A DNA stretch of 64,000 nt from Glaucostegus cemiculus (lineage: Eukaryota). Of the stretch, positions 15,633 to 56,345 are shown in pieces. Made by a program: the position numbers and the translations under genes. Numbering within the stretch: position 1 is the first letter of the stretch; each line of letters begins with the position of its first letter. The stretch lies in assembly GCA_976551045.1 (NCBI GenBank), contig CDPCPM010000120.1, positions 3,100,001-3,164,000 of the forward strand, read 5' to 3'. Under the pieces are notes generated by a model. It was not told the DNA's origin. It saw only the letters and a program-made list of their open reading frames with translations, and did not search any database.

Positions 15633-15761
15633 NNNNNNNNNNNNNNNNNNNNNNNNNNNNNNNNNNNNNNNNNNNNNNNNNNNNNNNNNNNNNNNNNNNN
15701 NNNNNNNNNNNNNNNNNNNNNNNNNNNNNNNNNNNNNNNNNNNNNNNNNNNNNNNNNNNNN
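15633..15761. other. Assembly gap (N run); further gaps at 32828-32967, 50654-50845 and 56180-56307
   Basis: Read directly. Confidence 1.
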
Positions 15762-17652: not shown

Positions 17653-20600
17653 TGGGAGTGGGATGGGGGTAGGATCTATCCCTATTTTACAAAATATATA
17701 TATTAAGATAGTTCAATGGACAACGGGGGTAGGGTGAACATATATTGAACAATTTATATTGAGGTTAAACCAAACATTAGAATGTCCTTTACTGTCGGAT
17801 GATTATTTTTAATATCACGGATACATGGTGGAATTTCTGGCATTACTCCGACTTGATAACCACACACAAAAAAAAGTGAATTGCAAACTTGACAGTGGAT
17901 TCAAGGCCGCCTTTCGGAACAAGTTCTGCGTCAGGTTGGAGCTGTCCTGCTGTTGGTTCTTCTCCACTCGGCGCAAACTTTCTGGCCCATACTGCTTAGT
18001 AATGCCTCAGATAGCCGCGGAAGTGCGGAGTGCAATTACATTTGTAACTGCAGTTGGAAGTGGCCCAGGTTCCCGCTGAAAACCGGAAACCTACCTGGGA
18101 GGTGTTGTGGCCCAGAGTGTCAACACTGTCGCTCAAGCAGATTCCGTCAAGGCTGACGAGTTCTATCTCTTTGTGTGACAGGTGCTCATCGGGGAATGAA
18201 CTGGAGGACTAAACACGCAAGCAGATTTTCAAAAAAAGGTTTTTTTTTCTATATAAAAATTGTACAAAGAGACACGAATACAAATATAATTCTGGTAAAG
18301 GTGCAATGGGGAAATTGAAATTAAAATGAACAGATTTTTTTCAATTGAAGTATTAAAAGTAAGATTTTAAGTAATTGGATAATAGTTGTACATTTATTGA
18401 GAAGTCAGAGTATTCCCCTCAGTTTGTGGACACTGTAAAGAACGGAGATGCTGTCCGGGTCGGGGATATCACCAAAAGAATTGGAGGAATAGGGAGATTT
18501 TTTTTAACTTTCTGTAAGAAAAATGAAATTATGTTTTGCCCACCCTTTATATTTAATATAAAATCGCGAAGCAACGCGCATTCTCAATGTGTTGTGCTCA
18601 CTATCCCTCTTGTTTAACGCCGACGTTATAGACTCGATGCCTGAGATTTTCTGCAATGTTATCTCTGGAGAAGTTGGTCGCATTTCTTACAGTGAGTTGA
18701 GCAAAGACGCAATCTGCCACTTGGTGACACTAAAGTGGCGCGGAACAAAGGCTTCCGCCTTTACAAAGATCACAAGATGCGAGTGTTGCGATAAAGACCG
18801 ACTCAAGCTGCAAAACGGGTCGAAAATTATCCCGTTTGAAAATACGAATTTATCTGATATTTGTACCCTATTTTAATTACTTCTTGTGCTCTTGGTCTCC
18901 CGAAAAGGTGATCGACGGTTTTTAATCTCACCCCGAATGTGCAAAGCATCCATGTCCTCCCTCTCAGTGAGAAATGTTTCACATTCCAGAGCAGCAAACT
19001 GCAAACCTCGTCCTATGTTGTTGCTGGGTGCCGGCTCTTTCCCGCAAACGAATGACGTGCGGCAAAGTCCCAAATTTCACACGAACACAAATCAACCAGC
19101 GCTTACGGTGCAACATTTTGAACTGTTTAACGACACGTTTTTTGATTTAGATTTTAAAATTTTATGTATTTAAGACATCTGAAAGCTGTCCTTAAAAACT
19201 GCATTACGTGGGTACTTCTTGGGATTTCTAGTCTTGGAATATTTTGCGCAATGTACTTCGGGAGTTATAAAGTACATGGAAAAATAAAGTTCATTGCTCA
19301 CTTATCAACTACCTCTGACAGCTCTGTTGTCTAAATAAAACACATTACCATTTTAAAAAGTAAGGCCTGCTGGCAGATTTCGGGTGTTCATTGTTGCTAT
19401 CAGATAGGGCACAAATATTGTTCATGATGATGACCGCGGTAAATGTGGCGTCTTCTCGACTGTTGAATGCATTCGCCATTCTTTGCAAGAAGCAAAGACC
19501 TTTAAGTAGAAACATTGTTGGGGAGAACTGGAGCAGATTATTATCACACTGGGAAAGGCTTTGGTGTCTTTGCAACCCCATCACAAACAAGGCCTGCCAG
19601 AACCGGGCAGGTTAGATGAGTGTTGCCCACTTCCTGACTGGAAACATATAGCAGATTGTGATCCCACCTGGATGGGAGCGGGACTCCGTGTCACCTCCAC
19701 TCCAACCACTGCTGTCCAACCCAAAGACAAATTAAATATTCCCGAAATGGATATTTTTACCACGGGGGTGGGGTTTGGTGGGGGTGGGAATCTTGTAGAT
19801 ATAAACATTCATGATAACATGGCTCATTTATCCAACAAACCAATTGGTTATCAATGGGAATCTGATGATGCTGCCTTGCCGGCCCTGACAGCGAGTGGAT
19901 GCAAAGCTTCCGTGAATGGGATCACAACATATGATTTAATCCATATTTCCCCCCAAAGAATGAATATCTATATCCTATCCCCCAGCAGAGCTTTCAAGTC
20001 AACACGCTGCTTCAGTTTAAATCAATATACCGTTAATTCAGAAGCGCATTTGAATGAATTTGCAAAGAAGTCGCTCGCTCTTCAAACGACCATCGTTTCT
20101 TTCGGACTCGAGCTGAACGCATCGTTTTATGTTGATCCGCTGATCGCTCTCACAGAGCGCAACACAAACCAAAAAGAAGTTGAGGACACAAAGCGCCGCA
20201 AATGCAAGGATCGCACGGCACAGATCGGAGATTGTAATGATTATTCGAGTGATAGGCGCGCCCTAATTCATCAGCGGAAAATACGGGTCGATTTTGAGTT
20301 TACTGAACACTATTGAGCAAATGCGGGATTTTTACAGTTGGCAACAGTCGGATCCAGAAAGTAGTTTACTTTGTGTTCATTTGTTTCCACTCTGCTGACA
20401 AGGAAATCTGAAATGAGTTCCCATCAACCTTGGGAGTGGAAACTAAATTAATAACACATCAACCCCCATAGTGTAATCTACTTATTGCACTTGGAGAGGT
20501 TTCCAACTGAAAATGAACGGAGTCTGGTTGTTTTTCTTTTTCAGCCAAAGAAAATCCAGGGAAACCGCCTCATCTTGTTATCACACAAACGGGAGCGTGT

Positions 20601-29149: not shown

Positions 29150-30190
29150 CAGGGTGCACCATCCGCCATCATGTCTCCAAGATGAGAATCTGGGGGTGTG
29201 TGGGGTGGGGGGGGGGGATACCGGACCAGGTGGCGCAGATGTCAGCCCCCCAGCCCAGCGGGTATCGGGGGTGGGACCCCCGCTGACCAGCACTGGGAGG
29301 GGGGGGGGAGATCGGCCCAGCAGGTCGGGCCTCGCCCCAATCCCAGTCCGGCTCCCGAGACTTGCCCCAACCTCTGTTCCCACCAGCACCCTCCGATCCA
29401 CGGAGCCTGGCCATGCGGTTCGGTTCCTTGGCCTGGGGGTCCTGCCACCACCTCCCCCCCTCCCCCCTCAACCCTTGAGCCGGACCTGTGGCCCGGGAAC
29501 CTGTGTCCCTGGGCCCGGGAGGGGACGGGACGGGACAGTCGGAGCCTCGGCCGAGAGCCGTCCCAGAGCTCGCCATGAGCCATGGAGGGGTGGGGAGGGG
29601 GGGCAACTCCAGGCTCAGGGACATCAATCGCCGTCCCAGCCACAGGCTGAAGCGCACTGAAGGCGGCAGATTGACCGAGGTCGACCGAAGGAGGCGGCGG
29701 CATCGATCGGCCCGGAGCCCGGAGCAGCTCCAGGGATTTGTTTCTTTGCTTTGGGGACTGGGATCTCGCCCTCGGAGTTATAAAGTAGTACCGTGCCTCT
29801 CCCCAGCCCTCCTCTATTTTAATTCCCTTCCTTGAAAGGATAAACAAACTTCCAGCAAAAACATAAAAATATTGACGTACCGAACGCTATTATCCGGGCG
29901 GACGGTGAATGCGATGCATTTGTAGGGAGGGAGTGGAAGCGAAGGACGCAGAGAGCATGGGCCAAGACGCGGGGTGAGACGCCCTCCCCCTTTCCTCCTC
30001 GCTTCTCCCGCCCTTTCGCCGTATCCCTCCGCGGGACGCCGCGCTGATTGGCTGCGGGCCGTGCCGACGCACGGGCGCGGCGCGGGCTGTGATTGGGCAG
30101 CGAGTGAAAAGGTTGCGGCGAGGCTTTGGAGCGGAGCGCCCAGGGGCCGCGATGAATTGCAGCAAGCTGGCTCCGCTCGACGTGTTTTTT
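29150..30190 (+). promoter_or_regulatory. foxg1 promoter / CpG island
   Basis: Very GC- and CpG-rich stretch directly upstream of the CDS. Two reverse CCAAT boxes (ATTGG at 30047-30051 and 30092-30096), TATAAAG at 29779-29785, forkhead-type ATAAACA at 29840-29846 and CRE-like TGACGT at 29873. TSS cannot be fixed from sequence alone. Confidence 0.8.
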
Positions 30191-30228
30191 AAGAACATGA
30201 AGTAGTGGCTCTTTTTTTTTATTGCTAC

Positions 30229-30309
30229 ATGAGTTGCCAGCGCTGGCGATTGCGGTCCAACTGTGCTGCTGCAATTTTACCTGTGTGTGATGTTGGACAT
30301 GGGAGATAA
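30229..30309 (+). promoter_or_regulatory. Out-of-frame upstream ORF overlapping the foxg1 start (26 aa, [26 protein letters not shown])
   Basis: ATG at 30229 reads open to TAA at 30307-30309, out of frame with the CDS, and spans ATG 30290 and ATG 30299. Translation is not demonstrated. Confidence 0.6.
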
Positions 30310-31519
30310 GAAAGAAGTGAAAATGATTCCCAAATCATCGTTCAGCATAAACAGCCTGGTGCCCGAAGCGGTTCAGAGTGACACCCGTCACCGAGCTGCC
30401 CCCGAAGACGAGGACAAAAACATCCTGCCAGCCGTGGAGTCCAAGTCTGAAAACCTGCTCAGCAAAAGTGACGGCGCCTCGGCCGAGCCGCCCTGCGCCG
30501 AAGACAAGGACAAGCAGGAGGAGAAGAAGGCCGAGGGCAAGGAGGGCGACGGCGCCAAGGAAGGGGAGAAGAAAAACGGCAAATACGAGAAGCCGCCGTT
30601 CAGTTATAACGCGCTGATCATGATGGCAATCCGGCAGAGCCCGGAGAAGCGGCTGACGCTGAATGGCATCTACGAGTTCATCATGAAGAATTTCCCCTAC
30701 TACAGGGAGAACAAGCAAGGCTGGCAGAACTCGATCAGGCACAACTTGAGCCTCAACAAATGTTTCGTCAAAGTTCCTCGGCACTACGATGATCCCGGGA
30801 AGGGGAACTACTGGATGCTGGATCCGTCTAGTGACGACGTCTTTATAGGTGGCACCACGGGCAAACTTCGCAGGAGATCCACCACATCGAGAGCAAAGTT
30901 GGCTTTCAAGCGGGGAGCGCGCCTCACTTCGACCGGACTGACATTCATGGATCGGGCAGGTTCCTTATATTGGCCCGTCTCACCATTCCTGTCCCTCCAT
31001 CACCCCCGAGCCAGCAGTACACTAAGCTACAATGGAACCACCTCACCTTACCCCAGCCACCCGATGTCCTACAGCTCGGTGTTAACTCAGAACTCTCTGG
31101 CAAACAATCACTCATTTCCAACATCCAATGGGTTAAGTGTAGACAGACTTGTGAACGGAGAGATCCCTTATGCCACTCATCACCTCACGGCCGCGGCCGC
31201 CTTGGCTGCCTCGGTGCCGTGTGGTCTGTCAGTTCCGTGCTCGGGTACTTACTCGTTAAACCCCTGCTCGGTGAATCTGCTGGCAGGACAGACAAGTTAC
31301 TTTTTCCCTCACGTTCCTCACCCTTCAATGACTTCTCAAAGCAGCACTTCAATGACGGCCAGGACAGCGTCCTCGACGTCTCCACAGGCGCCTTCAACTC
31401 TCCCCTGTGAATCTCTAAGACCTTCTTTGCCAAGTTTCTCCACGGGACTTTCAGGAGGACTTTCTGATTACTTCACGCATCAAAACCAGGGGCCCTCTTC
31501 AAACCCTCTAATACACTAA
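30290..31519 (+). CDS. foxg1: Forkhead box protein G1, single coding exon, 409 aa
   Basis: Translation starts [29 protein letters not shown] (FOXG1 N-terminus with eh1-like FSINSLV). It has an intact forkhead domain ([79 protein letters not shown]), [10 protein letters not shown], the Groucho-binding LSVDRL and the C-terminal SSNPLIH*. First ATG is at 30290; the ORF track begins at an upstream GTG (30263). Confidence 0.99.
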
Positions 31520-32410
31520 CAAATCCCTTCGAAAAGACTGTAAGTTAACATTTTACACACATTTGCGTTGTAAATAATTCTCAAAATAAGAAGCCCAGGT
31601 ATTTTTATTCAAGTCCCCATTTTTTTGTCTGCATTTTGTCAAATCCCGTAGGGTTGTTTGTTTATTCAATTTCAGCAATGTGCAATTTGAGGCGGTTTAG
31701 ATAGGAAAGCCACTAGTTAAATTAATGTAGACTGTGTATTTAAAATGACTGCATTCCAACTAAGTTTAAATTAGGCAGGTCTGTTTCAATTGTTCCAACA
31801 AATTCCATGTTTGCAGTATTATAAGTTATCATGGCTTTGTTGCTGGCTGCTGATTTCAATATTAGCGGTAACACTTCTTTCTACGAAAATAATAAGTATA
31901 GTTTAATTTGTTCTTCATACATAACCTGACTTAAAACATGCCTAACCTTTCGGTCATTTTTTTCCCATTTGGTTACAAAATGGTTCATGTTTACTTTTAG
32001 ACCAAAGACGGGGCTAGAAATGCACTCCTTGTTTAAAAGAACAAGTACTTTGAAAATAATTCCTATTTCCAGTTTACAACACTGCCTGCAAAGAATCAGA
32101 AGGGGACAAAATTGATGAATGCCTTTAGTTTGTGTTGTGCATAATTCGATGTATGTGGTCACTAACAGGTCCCTTTTCATTTCTTTATGTAAATGTAGTG
32201 AAATGTGTAAACCTATTGTACTACAAAGATAAAATTTTGCGGACGTGTAACCTGTGTTGCTTAAATGCCTCATGAATTCCTTGAGTGATTGTTAATGTCG
32301 TCTCTAAATTTCATGATTGTGATATTGTGATCATATGCCCGTGTTGTCACTTAAAATGTTTACTATACAGAAGGCACCGAAATAAAAAAATAGGTTACAT
32401 TCAGAAACAT
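31520..32410 (+). other. foxg1 3' UTR with miRNA seed matches
   Basis: CAGTATTA (miR-200b/c/429 8mer, 31814-31821), TGTTTAC (miR-30, 31988-31994 and 32357-32363), ACCAAAGA (miR-9 8mer, 32001-32008), AATGCAC (miR-33-type, 32019-32025), CACTGCC (miR-34, 32080-32086). Confidence 0.75.
32381..32386 (+). terminator. Probable foxg1 polyadenylation signal AATAAA
   Basis: AATAAA ~860 nt after the stop codon, followed by a T/GT-rich tract (tcttgtccttttctttgtc, ~32417-32435). Confidence 0.7.
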
Positions 32411-35400
32411 TGACATCTTGTCCTTTTCTTTGTCATGACGAAATGCAATAGTTATCCACTGTAGTATTTTAAATGCATTCCTGATCCCACTCTGCAAGGG
32501 ACGAGAATCTACCAAAGCGACAAAGAATAGAAGCCAATTTTATCTAGGCCTAAATGATGCTGTTATAGTGATTCAAGTTTAACTTGAATGGTTGGTACAG
32601 TATTTAAGCTGAGCTCCAATTCAGTCACTACAGTCAAATTTTTGTAGCTGGAGAAAATAGTTGTTGAATATCGTGATATATAAATATGTCAAATTTTAGA
32701 AAAAAATATATCTTCAGGACAGTCTAATTTCCACCCAGTTCCACATAATATCCTTTAAATTGAGTGAGACGGCCATTTCTAAAACAAATAGCCCTTTCTA
32801 AATGTATTTCACTGTTGTGCAATTATTNNNNNNNNNNNNNNNNNNNNNNNNNNNNNNNNNNNNNNNNNNNNNNNNNNNNNNNNNNNNNNNNNNNNNNNNN
32901 NNNNNNNNNNNNNNNNNNNNNNNNNNNNNNNNNNNNNNNNNNNNNNNNNNNNNNNNNNNNNNNNNNNCCCAGAAGTATATATATTCCAACCAAAAAGGCA
33001 ATTTTGTTGTTTGTTTTTTTTGGAGTTGAGCGCCTAATTTGGTTTCAGTGAGCACATAGGCCTGTCGTTTCACAACAACACTTTAGATTTTATGTATCTT
33101 TTAAACACTCCGCAGACATCGAAAAATATATCAACAACCAAAACATCTCACAATATAGATTGTAAACATTTTAAAATTAAAGCTGATTCAAAGAAATGCT
33201 CCATAGGTTGACAGTACTTTAATGTTTGTTGTCAGTTATTCCTATGACCATGTTGTAATACAAAATGACAAATAATTTTCAAAACTACATTGGCCGGTGA
33301 AACCAAATGAACGTTAAAACCGCTGAATGCTGTGTATATTACTTGAACATTGAGAAATACATCAAACTCTAAATCACTCCATTTATGATAACCTCGTAAT
33401 GTGTACATCTGTAACTTAATTTAAGATTAAATTAATCTGTGCAATTATTGTGAACTACTAATTTCCGTTTTGGTATAGTCATCTGAAACCAGAACAGTTA
33501 AAGGATCATTATGGAAAGAAGGGAAATCTCGGAATATGCAACATTGCAAGAAAACTTCTGCTAACACATTTCCTGCAAATCCGATCCGCCTGTAGGCCTG
33601 CCTTATTTGTTCTTCTTGTACCGCATTAAAGATGCCCACGAGTAATACAATAAGGCCAGCGCCTCTTACAATAGGCCCGAAGGAAAACGAATCACTGCTC
33701 AAGATGTTATCGCTCCAATGTTAAGCGGGGTTATATGAAAGAAGGAAGTGTGTCTCCTGAATTAAATACAAGTACATTTATATGGAAAGGAAAACGATAG
33801 TTTACGAGGGGTTGTAGAAGGGATCTATTAGAATAAGAGCCATTACAACTACTAAAGAAACGTGAAGGTTCATTTACATAGTGGCAAGACGCAGTGACGT
33901 TGACTGTTATCTCTGCCTCTGACTAGTCGGAGAAACTATATCCCTCTTTCTCTCCTCAAAACCTGGGGCCCGAGCCCAGTAAATAAAGTTAACCTAACTG
34001 TTGATTATACGTTGTGTACAGCCTGTTTTGGAAAATGCATAGCTTCTTTATTCAGTGGTTGTTATTTTACCACATCACAGGTTAAAGGCCCTCGTGCATT
34101 TCAGATCTATGGTCCAATTAGAAATTTAACAAGTGTAACTTCGGAAAGAATTTGGATAAAAATGTACAGGTTTTTGTTCATAGTATGTAACTCTGCCGTT
34201 CTACGCAAAGAAAATCGGAATATTCTTCTGCATTTTGGAGGTGGGACGAAGAACTGAGGGGCAGTATCTTACATTTGGTAAGTGCACGGTTTCTCTATTG
34301 TTTTACTGAAATAATTCGGCGTGGGTTGCTAGTTTAGTTTGAAACGTTAGTATGTGCGAATTGTGACGCACAATCTTTATTTCAATGCTTTACTGGAAAT
34401 GTGGTTTAATTAGTCATTCGCATTATTCTAACATCATAATTATCACCATGACCAAAAAAAATAGTTGATTGAAAGATTAATTTTATAAGATAATATCATA
34501 CCCGTATTAAAAATTGCGTGGGTACACGTAGTATAAGTTATGCGAATAAGCACCAAAATACTTTCATGATTACTCCAAAGCGACCAGAAATTCTCAAGTT
34601 TTTACCAATATAGAATAACTTTGATTTATGATTAACAGAAGGACCGATACAGCAAACAAAAGTAACTCGTGCTTTAGATATCGCAATTGTGTTACTTCTC
34701 TATTGTCTGGTCGCTTTGGGTGTCGGCCGATAGGGAGGGGGAACGGATCGCGAGAGTATTTCTGTTCTCGAAAATGCTGGGCTGTGACTGAGCGGACAAC
34801 CAATATGAACACACAACCTCAGATCTCCAATTACCCTTACACTGAAGCATTTAGATCTGCCAACAGCGAAGTTTGGAGGATTACAGTCCATTTTAAAAAC
34901 GAAGCAGACATTTCTATGACACTTAGTTCTAAGTGTTAAAAATCAAATATTCCCCAATAACACACATCAACTGATCCATTCAAAATGAGATGGTTCAGAT
35001 GCATTCAAATGCATTTCAAATGCATGCATTTCTTTTCCAAATTCCCTACTTTGAAACAATTGGGCCAGTCCAAAAGTATATTATTGATACATTGTATCTG
35101 TAACCAGAAGTATATCTGGAGTGAAGTTGTGATTTTCACAGTCAAATTTTGATCAGAGAATTGCAAACCGGCCAACTTAATTTCAAAAACCATCATAAGT
35201 ATATCATTCCTTTAAACTTTTATTTGGTTCGGCTAAGTCAGTTTCCAGTCGTTTGGGAAATCTCAGACTGACCTTCTGGCAATGCGTGCCAGTTGCTATC
35301 ATGTCTTATAGAATGAGGCGACTCTGCAACGTTACTTGAAAGTATTGTGGACAGCTAATTATATCTGTTCAAATAATTCTACACTGAATCTGAATGATCT

Positions 35401-50464: not shown

Positions 50465-50950
50465 AGAGCTACTGCCTTATATCTCTAGCCCCTGGGTTTG
50501 AACCTTGGGTGTTGTCTGTGTCAGGTTTGTACATTATTGCTGTGACTGCATGGATTTCCCCTGGGTACTCCAGTTTCCTCTCATATCCCAATACATGTGG
50601 GTTGGTAGGTTAATTGGCTGTTGTAAATTCCCCCTAGTGTAGATGGGTGATAANNNNNNNNNNNNNNNNNNNNNNNNNNNNNNNNNNNNNNNNNNNNNNN
50701 NNNNNNNNNNNNNNNNNNNNNNNNNNNNNNNNNNNNNNNNNNNNNNNNNNNNNNNNNNNNNNNNNNNNNNNNNNNNNNNNNNNNNNNNNNNNNNNNNNNN
50801 NNNNNNNNNNNNNNNNNNNNNNNNNNNNNNNNNNNNNNNNNNNNNGCTAATGATCATGTGAGAGAGAATATGTTAAAGAGTAATTGATGCGTTTGCTCTG
50901 AGAATCAGCATCGATTCTATGGGCTGAATGAGCTCCTTCTGCATCAAAAT
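50465..50950 (+). mobile_element. V-SINE (HE1-like) spanning an assembly gap
   Basis: gtgactgcatggatttcccctgggtactccagtttcctctcatatccc...ggtaggttaattggctgttgtaaattccccctagtgtag (V-domain) and a CR1-type tail atgggctgaatgagctccttctg. Confidence 0.8.
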
Positions 50951-54720: not shown

Positions 54721-56345
54721 TGGAATTATATTACACTAGGTCAAAATTCTAGATCCTCCTACTTAACAGCACTCTGGGAATACCTTCATCTGAACCACCA
54801 CAGCAGGCCAATACAGCAACATCTCATCACCTTCTCAAAGGCAATCTGGGGTGGCAGTTCAATTAAATTCTTCATTGGTGCCAACAAATAATGAAATAAA
54901 GAACGAATGGCACTTTCAATGAACTACCTTTCCGAGAGCTGCAGCAGTCTGGGCTGATTGGCTGACAGAAAAAGTGAGGGCACTGACATAATGGCAATGG
55001 TGGGATTCACAAATACAGTTATCCTGAAAAAAGACACTGCAACTCCCTCTGTAACCCTAGCGATCTGCTGGAAGGTAGATTATGGGACTAGTGTGACATT
55101 CTCAAAACTCCTTCTATGTTGGTATCAAAAACCATGATGGTATCATTCTGAGCTTGGAATGCAGAAAGCTGTACTTCCACTTCAATACTCCAATGTTGGA
55201 TTGCTTCTTTCTGTGCTACATTTACCCAAGTCACCAGAGATTGCATGATATCTGGGTCAACACGTGTTGAAATGGAACCAGCCACTGCTTTATACTATGT
55301 CCTACACAAAGACACAAGCCAGGTTGGAGCTGGATTCATCCATGCTGCTTGACATTTCATGCAAACTTGGCCTTGGACTCCTTCTTTTATCTCTCCACCA
55401 TAGCCCTTGTCTGAATCCTCTGGAATAAAACTCATGTGTGGCCATAACTTGCAGGGACTGGGAACTTGCTACCCTACACTTGTCCTGGTATTTGTGCCTG
55501 ATGACTCATTATGAACAGATTCTGCCTCTAAACTACCCTCTACAGTATATAGAATGCTGGCACCTGAGTAGCTGAGCAACTGTCAAATCAAAGGATGGGC
55601 TGTTTACTTCTTCACTGTCTGGTGCACAAGTAGTCAGCACCTGACTAGACTTGAGTCCTTGCCTTCCCAAACACAAGAACGCAAATAATCTTTGTTATGT
55701 TGAGAAGAAGGGAACAGATAATATATGCATAATTAATCCATCTGAATTTTGTAGATATGAAGAGGTTATGGTCCGAAGAGGAAGTGGAACATGAGAAGGA
55801 GCATAAGACTTCTGCATATCATCTTGAAAGGTATCTGCTTCCCTGCTGGCCAAGGACTGTGGCAACGTAACAAGGATGCTACCACCCTCTGTTCGAGGCT
55901 GCTCAGTTGACCAACACAGTACTGTCAGTGATGTTGCTGGCACCAATTGTGCTGCCAGATACAAACGTTTTGGTGAGTGTACTGGAGTGTGTCTCTACAA
56001 TTTCTCAGCTGTGACTGATTAACTGGAAGTAGATGTGAAAATGCAATCTGTGGTTGGAAGTGTAAAAGGTTATCCCTGGGTGGAAGAGAGTGCTGGAGTA
56101 ACAGGAAGTCTATCAGGATAGAAACGGGACAAATCAATGCTAAGCAGGAGTCACGAATGTTAGAAGTTGTTGATAGCTANNNNNNNNNNNNNNNNNNNNN
56201 NNNNNNNNNNNNNNNNNNNNNNNNNNNNNNNNNNNNNNNNNNNNNNNNNNNNNNNNNNNNNNNNNNNNNNNNNNNNNNNNNNNNNNNNNNNNNNNNNNNN
56301 NNNNNNNAAGATAGGACCTTTCTGATATTTTAGTTGTCCTTGGCT

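Follow-up and report, generated by a model that had tools for sequence, protein, structure and literature searches.

The foxg1 locus

The window analyzed here is a stretch of 64,000 nt from Glaucostegus cemiculus (contig CDPCPM010000120.1, positions 3,100,001 to 3,164,000 of the forward strand), and all positions are given in window coordinates. It carries foxg1 as a single uninterrupted ORF of 409 aa on the plus strand (30290..31519), with methionine codons at residue 1 (Met1, 30290), residue 4 (Met4, 30299), and residue 12 (Met12, 30323). A Forkhead domain (PF00250) was detected in this ORF by domain search with an E value of 3.6e-40. The homologue search returned a 100% identical protein labelled Pristis pectinata FoxG1 (P0001), after which the closest FoxG1 matches come from sharks, skates, and chimaera. 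Met1 has G at -3 and T at +4, while Met4 has G at both positions, which is a strong initiation context.

A valine codon directly precedes Met1 (GTG-ATG, 30287-30292); it gives the G at -3 and a third-frame TGA overlapping the start. Valine was also found directly N-terminal of Met1 in all eight N-terminally extended FoxG1 homologues seen. The FoxG1 frame is stop-free for 19 codons 5' of Met1 (30233-30289) and contains a GTG at 30263 with A at -3. Annotated starts at the place matching the 30263 region occur in a skate-cluster entry (P0141) and probably in a salmonid-cluster entry (P0015), and a near-cognate N-terminal extension of FoxG1 from GTG 30263 is a possible candidate. In a skate-cluster entry, the final 24 nt of the leader are spaced as in the window.

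The 3'UTR contains motifs which we take to be seed matches of miR-200bc/429 (31814-31820 and 32598-32604) and of miR-9 (an 8mer at 32001-32008 and a 7mer at 32511-32517), and microRNA control of FoxG1 is known. An AATAAA is present at 32381, so the second pair of sites (32511 and 32598) may lie past the first poly(A) signal. Far from foxg1, a stop-free stretch of 268 codons on the plus strand (19510-20313) is possibly the remnant of a repeat element. Four runs of N with a total of 589 bases (15633-15761, 32828-32967, 50654-50845, and 56180-56307) interrupt the window, none of which touches foxg1 or its upstream ORFs.

Upstream ORFs in the foxg1 leader

An upstream ORF (uORF) of 26 codons, found in the ORF listing at 30229..30309 on the plus strand, overlaps the beginning of foxg1. 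Its start codon (uATG) at 30229 has the weak context tac-ATG-a and is located 61 nt 5' of Met1, out of frame with foxg1. The ORF reads over both Met1 and Met4 and terminates at a TAA (30307-30309), leaving 13 nt between this stop and Met12. With an AUG 5' of the coding sequence, a different frame, and a stop within the coding sequence, it is by definition an overlapping uORF. Direct reading of the sequence also gives a minimal uORF, Met-Lys-stop (ATG-AAG-TAG, 30197..30205, plus strand, context aac-ATG-a), 23 nt ahead of the overlapping uATG and 84 nt ahead of Met1. A sequence-only reading of this DNA had placed the uATG, Met1, Met4, the TAA, the 13-nt gap, and the minimal uORF, and all of these coordinates are right. 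A 17-codon ORF on the plus strand that begins at ATG 30152 and ends in the minimal uORF (30152..30205) was absent from that reading.

The minimal and the overlapping uORF are separated by a T9 run (30212..30220, plus strand), which is one nucleotide shorter in all four aligned runs from relatives, with both uORF frames unaffected. A near-cognate GTG at 30205 was considered as an extension of the uORF and discarded, since the shorter T run shifts its frame in all four. Among 2000 dinucleotide shuffles of the leader, 36-40% contained an overlapping out-of-frame uORF and 19-21% contained a uORF no longer than two codons. The mere presence of such uORFs is near the chance expectation, and the case depends on their conservation.

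A mammalian counterpart of the overlapping uORF

NM_005249 and NM_008241 are presumably the human and mouse FOXG1 accessions. The rows NM_005249_1 and NM_008241_1 are among the 204 conserved human-mouse uORF pairs of Crowe et al. 2006, where each encodes 64 aa and terminates in the FOXG1 start codons, the human row stopping at the last sense codon, before the stop codon itself (PMC1402274). Because the catalogue rows derive from RefSeq mRNAs, the mammalian uATG sits on annotated transcripts. The sequence-only reading had cited a human uORF whose N-terminal peptide agrees with the catalogue row (PMC1402274), which establishes that uORF as real.

The window uORF is the orthologue of this 64-codon uORF, with a common start, frame, and last residues. 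The distance from the uATG to Met1 is 61 nt in the window versus 175 nt in human and mouse, and the difference of 114 nt equals exactly 38 codons, an agreement in frame that comes from one window-mammal comparison and would be met by chance in one case out of three. Over the first 15 codons, 37 of 45 nt are identical between the window and human in a by-eye comparison, and 12 of 15 residues are identical between the window and macaque or human. The mammalian pair resembles the window uORF in the position of its start relative to the conserved block described below, in its frame, and in the last codons over FOXG1 codons 1-6. It differs in having 38 additional GC-rich codons, and in the text covered it appears as a catalogue row for human and mouse only (PMC1402274).

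A matching uORF peptide was also found in a macaque entry (P0067), with at most 37 of 42 nt compatible (shuffle p=0.005). This protein starts with the uORF peptide fused in frame to FOXG1, and is a singleton and the sole such protein among 2253 candidates. Aligned by eye, it follows the human frame and then undergoes a 1-nt shift in a C run. We rejected the in-frame fusion as a lineage trait on these grounds; it is probably an assembly or annotation error.

In contrast to its mere presence, the conservation of the uORF lies far beyond chance on these sequence comparisons. Since start, frame, and end are common to the window, human, and mouse, the overlapping uORF is probably older than the divergence of cartilaginous fishes from bony vertebrates, which took place about 450 million years ago. 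The human-mouse uORF has been catalogued since 2006 and is not new in mammals; what is added here is the depth of its conservation, together with evidence that selection probably acts on neither its peptide nor its stop. Our literature searches returned no study of the FOXG1 uORF and no report of such conservation depth, and no passage on a uORF was found in the covered parts of a FOXG1 review (PMC8780739).

Teleost leaders and wider searches

Teleost leaders were viewed indirectly, through N-terminally extended gene models and on the assumption that these represent contiguous genomic sequence. The guppy model (P0110) retains the block 30152-30187, with at most 30 of 36 nt compatible (p=0.005) and Ile at the place of ATG 30152. 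Both guppy (p=0.055) and halibut (P0102, p=0.035) retain a block that fits the minimal uORF, and an ATG is possible at that place. No ATG is possible in either model between -148/-145 and -52, whichever frame or codons are assumed. If the models are contiguous, the overlapping uATG looks lost in guppy and halibut, and some teleosts do without it. The claim of an ancient conserved uATG and frame, made in the sequence-only reading, is thus borne out by human and mouse, but not as a pan-vertebrate feature.

Anchors at the Gln-Leu-Cys motif were not significant in the other teleosts (medaka, p=0.095; snakehead, p=0.23), and no anchor was found in P0115; the frame shifts in medaka and snakehead are therefore hints only. 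The salmonid-cluster entry offers an anchor of only three residues (p=0.025). In the medaka entry (P0088), from a cluster of five members, a Met in frame with Met1 lies 96 nt ahead of it, which gives an extension of 32 aa. This Met could be the uATG homologue moved into frame, with the anchor at p=0.095 not significant.

A metagenome scan gave 182 FoxG-like stretches, of which 80 were kept, and the vertebrate start motif was found in none of the 81 loci considered. The leader motif had no match in viral contigs and none in plasmids. Its single prokaryote match, on a Paenibacillus contig, was taken as chance.

Nucleotide-level constraint of the promoter and leader

Alignment to related fish delimits a nearly invariant block on the plus strand (30123..30423), comprising proximal promoter or leader, the uORFs, and the first codons of foxg1. 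Four of the 20 matching runs were aligned, each from a different organism and three of them presumably RNA-derived, and the differences of runs X19 and X12 could not all be placed. None of the 40 substitution rows listed, out of 67, falls within 30123-30423. Run X20 has no substitution in 252 nt of the block versus 14 substitutions in the 161 nt flanking it (p=1e-6). In run X15, 32 of 38 differences were placed, all of them outside the block (Fisher p=5e-7, or 5e-3 if the six unplaced ones are all inside). About seven changes would be expected in the 106 non-ORF leader nucleotides of X15, and none was placed there. Apart from the T run noted above, which lacks one nucleotide in all four runs, the block contains no indel. 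The constraint is confined neither to the uORF nor to non-synonymous sites.

Two inverted CCAAT boxes (30047-30051 and 30092-30096, minus strand) were recognized by motif reading shortly upstream of the block, and no substitution row falls in either box among the 40 of 67 listed. CCAAT boxes usually lie at -60 to -100 from the transcription start. This spacing would place the transcription start near 30150-30195, and the overlapping uATG would therefore be within the mRNA, with the minimal uORF near its 5' end.

Because the whole block is nearly invariant, non-ORF bases included, the ATG could be passively carried along. The uORF would then be a passenger of a hyperconserved core-promoter or leader element made of transcription-factor, initiator, or RNA-binding-protein sites, and its weak ATG would have little translational effect. 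The distribution of changes in X20 and X15 and the nearby CCAAT boxes fit this explanation, as does guppy, which keeps conserved blocks without ATG 30152 or the overlapping uATG. Hyperconserved 5'UTRs are moreover a described class (Byeon et al., 10.1101/2020.06.29.165878). The foxg1 leader resembles that class in its near-invariant sequence of about 300 nt adjoining a developmental gene's start codon. It differs in that Foxg1 is unnamed in the main text and that the class is defined by a PhastCons element with a LOD of at least 500 that overlaps the annotated 5'UTR, whereas the invariance in the window refers to close relatives only (10.1101/2020.06.29.165878). Leader ATGs normally cost translation and are selected against (PMC1402274), while this one is kept in three distant species, and its frame is still open in mammals after lengthening by exactly 38 codons. 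Neither is there a sign of a structured element: the leader (30150-30340) folds no better than its shuffles (z=-1.3, with 20 of 200 shuffles as good), and has no match in Rfam. We regard a passenger uORF as the main rival of the brake proposed below, though as less probable.

Tests for selection on the uORF peptide

The sequence-only reading had suggested that the uORF may be conserved at the peptide level and may encode a micropeptide. For this comparison the human and mouse rows were aligned by eye and only the tallies were computed; the numbers are low and come from three species. Between the window and human, codons 1-15 contain eight differences in 45 nt, distributed 3/2/3 over the codon positions, and the six differing codons are three synonymous and three non-synonymous. 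Between human and mouse, codons 1-36 contain 12 differences (6/2/4), with eight non-synonymous and two synonymous codons, and the only differences in codons 1-21 are two non-synonymous changes. No excess at third positions was found in these small by-eye tallies, neither in 3 of 8 differences between the window and human (p=0.53) nor in 4 of 12 between human and mouse (p=0.61).

Conserved-peptide uORFs (CPuORFs) are judged by several features. Peptide similarity to a distant taxon is present here (the 12 of 15 residues shared with primate). An excess of synonymous changes is absent from the small counts of the three species, and neither the length (26 vs 64 aa) nor the C-terminus with its stop is conserved, the stop being impossible in 62 of the 106 homologues considered below. 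The C-terminal residues that the window and mammalian uORFs share fall in the overlap with the coding sequence, where the sole window-mammal change is silent for FoxG1 and not for the uORF. The uORF peptide has no Pfam family, and the search for stand-alone uORF peptides of 14-70 aa gave two candidates, neither at E<=10. Comparison of the peptide with the Atlas gave uninformative matches of at most 0.81.

A role of the peptide itself, either as a conserved peptide stalling ribosomes in cis or as a micropeptide, draws on the similarity of the first residues, on the synonymous half of the differing window-human codons, and on membership in the 204 pairs of Crowe et al., which as a pooled set show purifying selection (PMC1402274). 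It is countered by the codon-position tallies, by the two human-mouse changes in codons 1-21, by the unequal lengths, by a shared C-terminus that coincides with the coding overlap, and by the lack of any family or stand-alone relative in the searches. We consider such a role improbable. The suggestion of peptide-level conservation was not upheld: third positions show no excess, the uORF measures 26 vs 64 aa, and the near-invariance also covers non-ORF bases.

The uORF stop codon and Met12

Together, FoxG1 codon 6 (Asp) and the codon after it form the stop of the overlapping uORF. We examined residue 6 in the 120 homologues listed, of which 14 without the standard N-terminus were dropped and 106 were scored. 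Residue 6 is Glu in 62 of the 106, where this stop is impossible, and Asp in 44. The carriers of Glu6 include three named skates, the paddlefish, and most of the listed teleosts and amphibians. The Glu6 homologues could still have a uORF stop one codon away or nearby, depending on codon choice; with the codons of the window itself, the next uORF stop would be at 30379, beyond Met12.

These data bear on the proposal of the sequence-only reading that the uORF might favour re-initiation at Met12, from which a shorter FoxG1 isoform would be produced. The stop lies 13 nt short of Met12, and Met12 is present in all 106 homologues with the standard N-terminus. The conservation of Met12 is, however, accounted for by the FoxG1 protein itself, and the stop that makes the gap is impossible in the majority of homologues, including the three skates, where a neighbouring-codon stop is possible. 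According to Kozak, re-initiation after an ORF of 26-64 codons over only 13 nt is reportedly inefficient. Because this stop is impossible in 62 of the 106 and the mammalian uORF has 64 codons, Met12 re-initiation is unlikely as a conserved purpose. The proposal is weakened to the point that we hold it to be highly improbable.

A putative leaky-scanning brake on FoxG1 synthesis

The reading we favour on balance is that the uORF probably acts in cis as a leaky-scanning damper on FoxG1 synthesis. Scanning ribosomes that start at the weak uATG would traverse both Met1 and Met4 out of frame and be lost to FoxG1. Most ribosomes would scan past the uATG and initiate at Met1 or at Met4 with its strong context. 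Under this model the important features would be the start site and the out-of-frame overlap, whereas the peptide and the precise position of the stop would not count. Some ribosomes might escape the brake by way of the minimal uORF and re-initiate at Met1 or Met4, 84-93 nt further on, which requires a transcription start upstream of 30197. The anatomy of the ORFs, the orthology, the shared frame, and the nucleotide-level constraint are all seen in the sequence. The uATG and frame common to the window, human, and mouse, the annotated mammalian transcripts, and the spacing kept in a skate-cluster entry speak for the brake. The weak context of the uATG, the extension of the invariance to non-ORF bases, the single window-mammal comparison behind the shared frame, and the guppy and halibut models without a uATG argue against it. 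In the literature, overlapping uORFs are portrayed as strong inhibitors that prevent re-initiation (PMC13087467). For a dosage-sensitive gene such as FOXG1, whose deletions and duplications are both pathogenic (PMC8780739), a rheostat role is plausible.

Mouse Ptch1 (Fujii et al. 2017) is comparable as a developmental regulator with uAUGs in its leader, including one that overlaps the coding sequence, and deletion of its uORF cluster raises the protein (PMC5316868). The function is demonstrated for Ptch1, whereas the foxg1 case is known from sequence. Against a brake, the natively overlapping fourth uAUG of Ptch1 is dispensable for repression in mouse (PMC5316868).

The arrangement in the window is of the ATF4 type, with a short uORF1 (30197-30205) followed by an overlapping out-of-frame uORF2 (30229-30309). 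The leaders of ATF4 and ATF5 likewise have a very short first uORF and then a second one that crosses the main start in a different frame. The two uORFs are separated by roughly 90 nt in ATF4 and by 23 nt in the window, where the second uATG is moreover in a weak context. A gap of 23 nt would be better suited to skipping the decoy than to a stress switch, and we know of no stress response of FOXG1. A more far-reaching model would take the pair as an ATF4-like switch from the jawed-vertebrate ancestor, in which the two-codon uORF as shield and the overlapping uORF as decoy set the dose of FoxG1 and couple it to the state of the initiation factors in forebrain progenitors; this model is speculative and we think it unlikely. 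If it were true, the healthy allele in FOXG1 syndrome would yield more FOXG1 once the human uATG was blocked.

Published ORF catalogues were also searched. No match to a FOXG1 ORF was found in the supplements of Mackowiak 2015 (9 of 16 files), Sandmann 2023, Akirtava 2022, and Zhang 2017, which is not evidence against translation. The covered part of the Wang 2021 supplement contains FOXG1 in gene-level rows only. Term searches for FOXG1 also came up empty in the main text of the preprints by Takahashi, Byeon, and Chothani, of the 5ULTRA paper, and of Fujii 2017.

An upstream start that represses translation and has persisted in both cartilaginous fish and mammals would, if real, be a specific control point of FoxG1 synthesis and a candidate target for raising the protein made from an intact allele.
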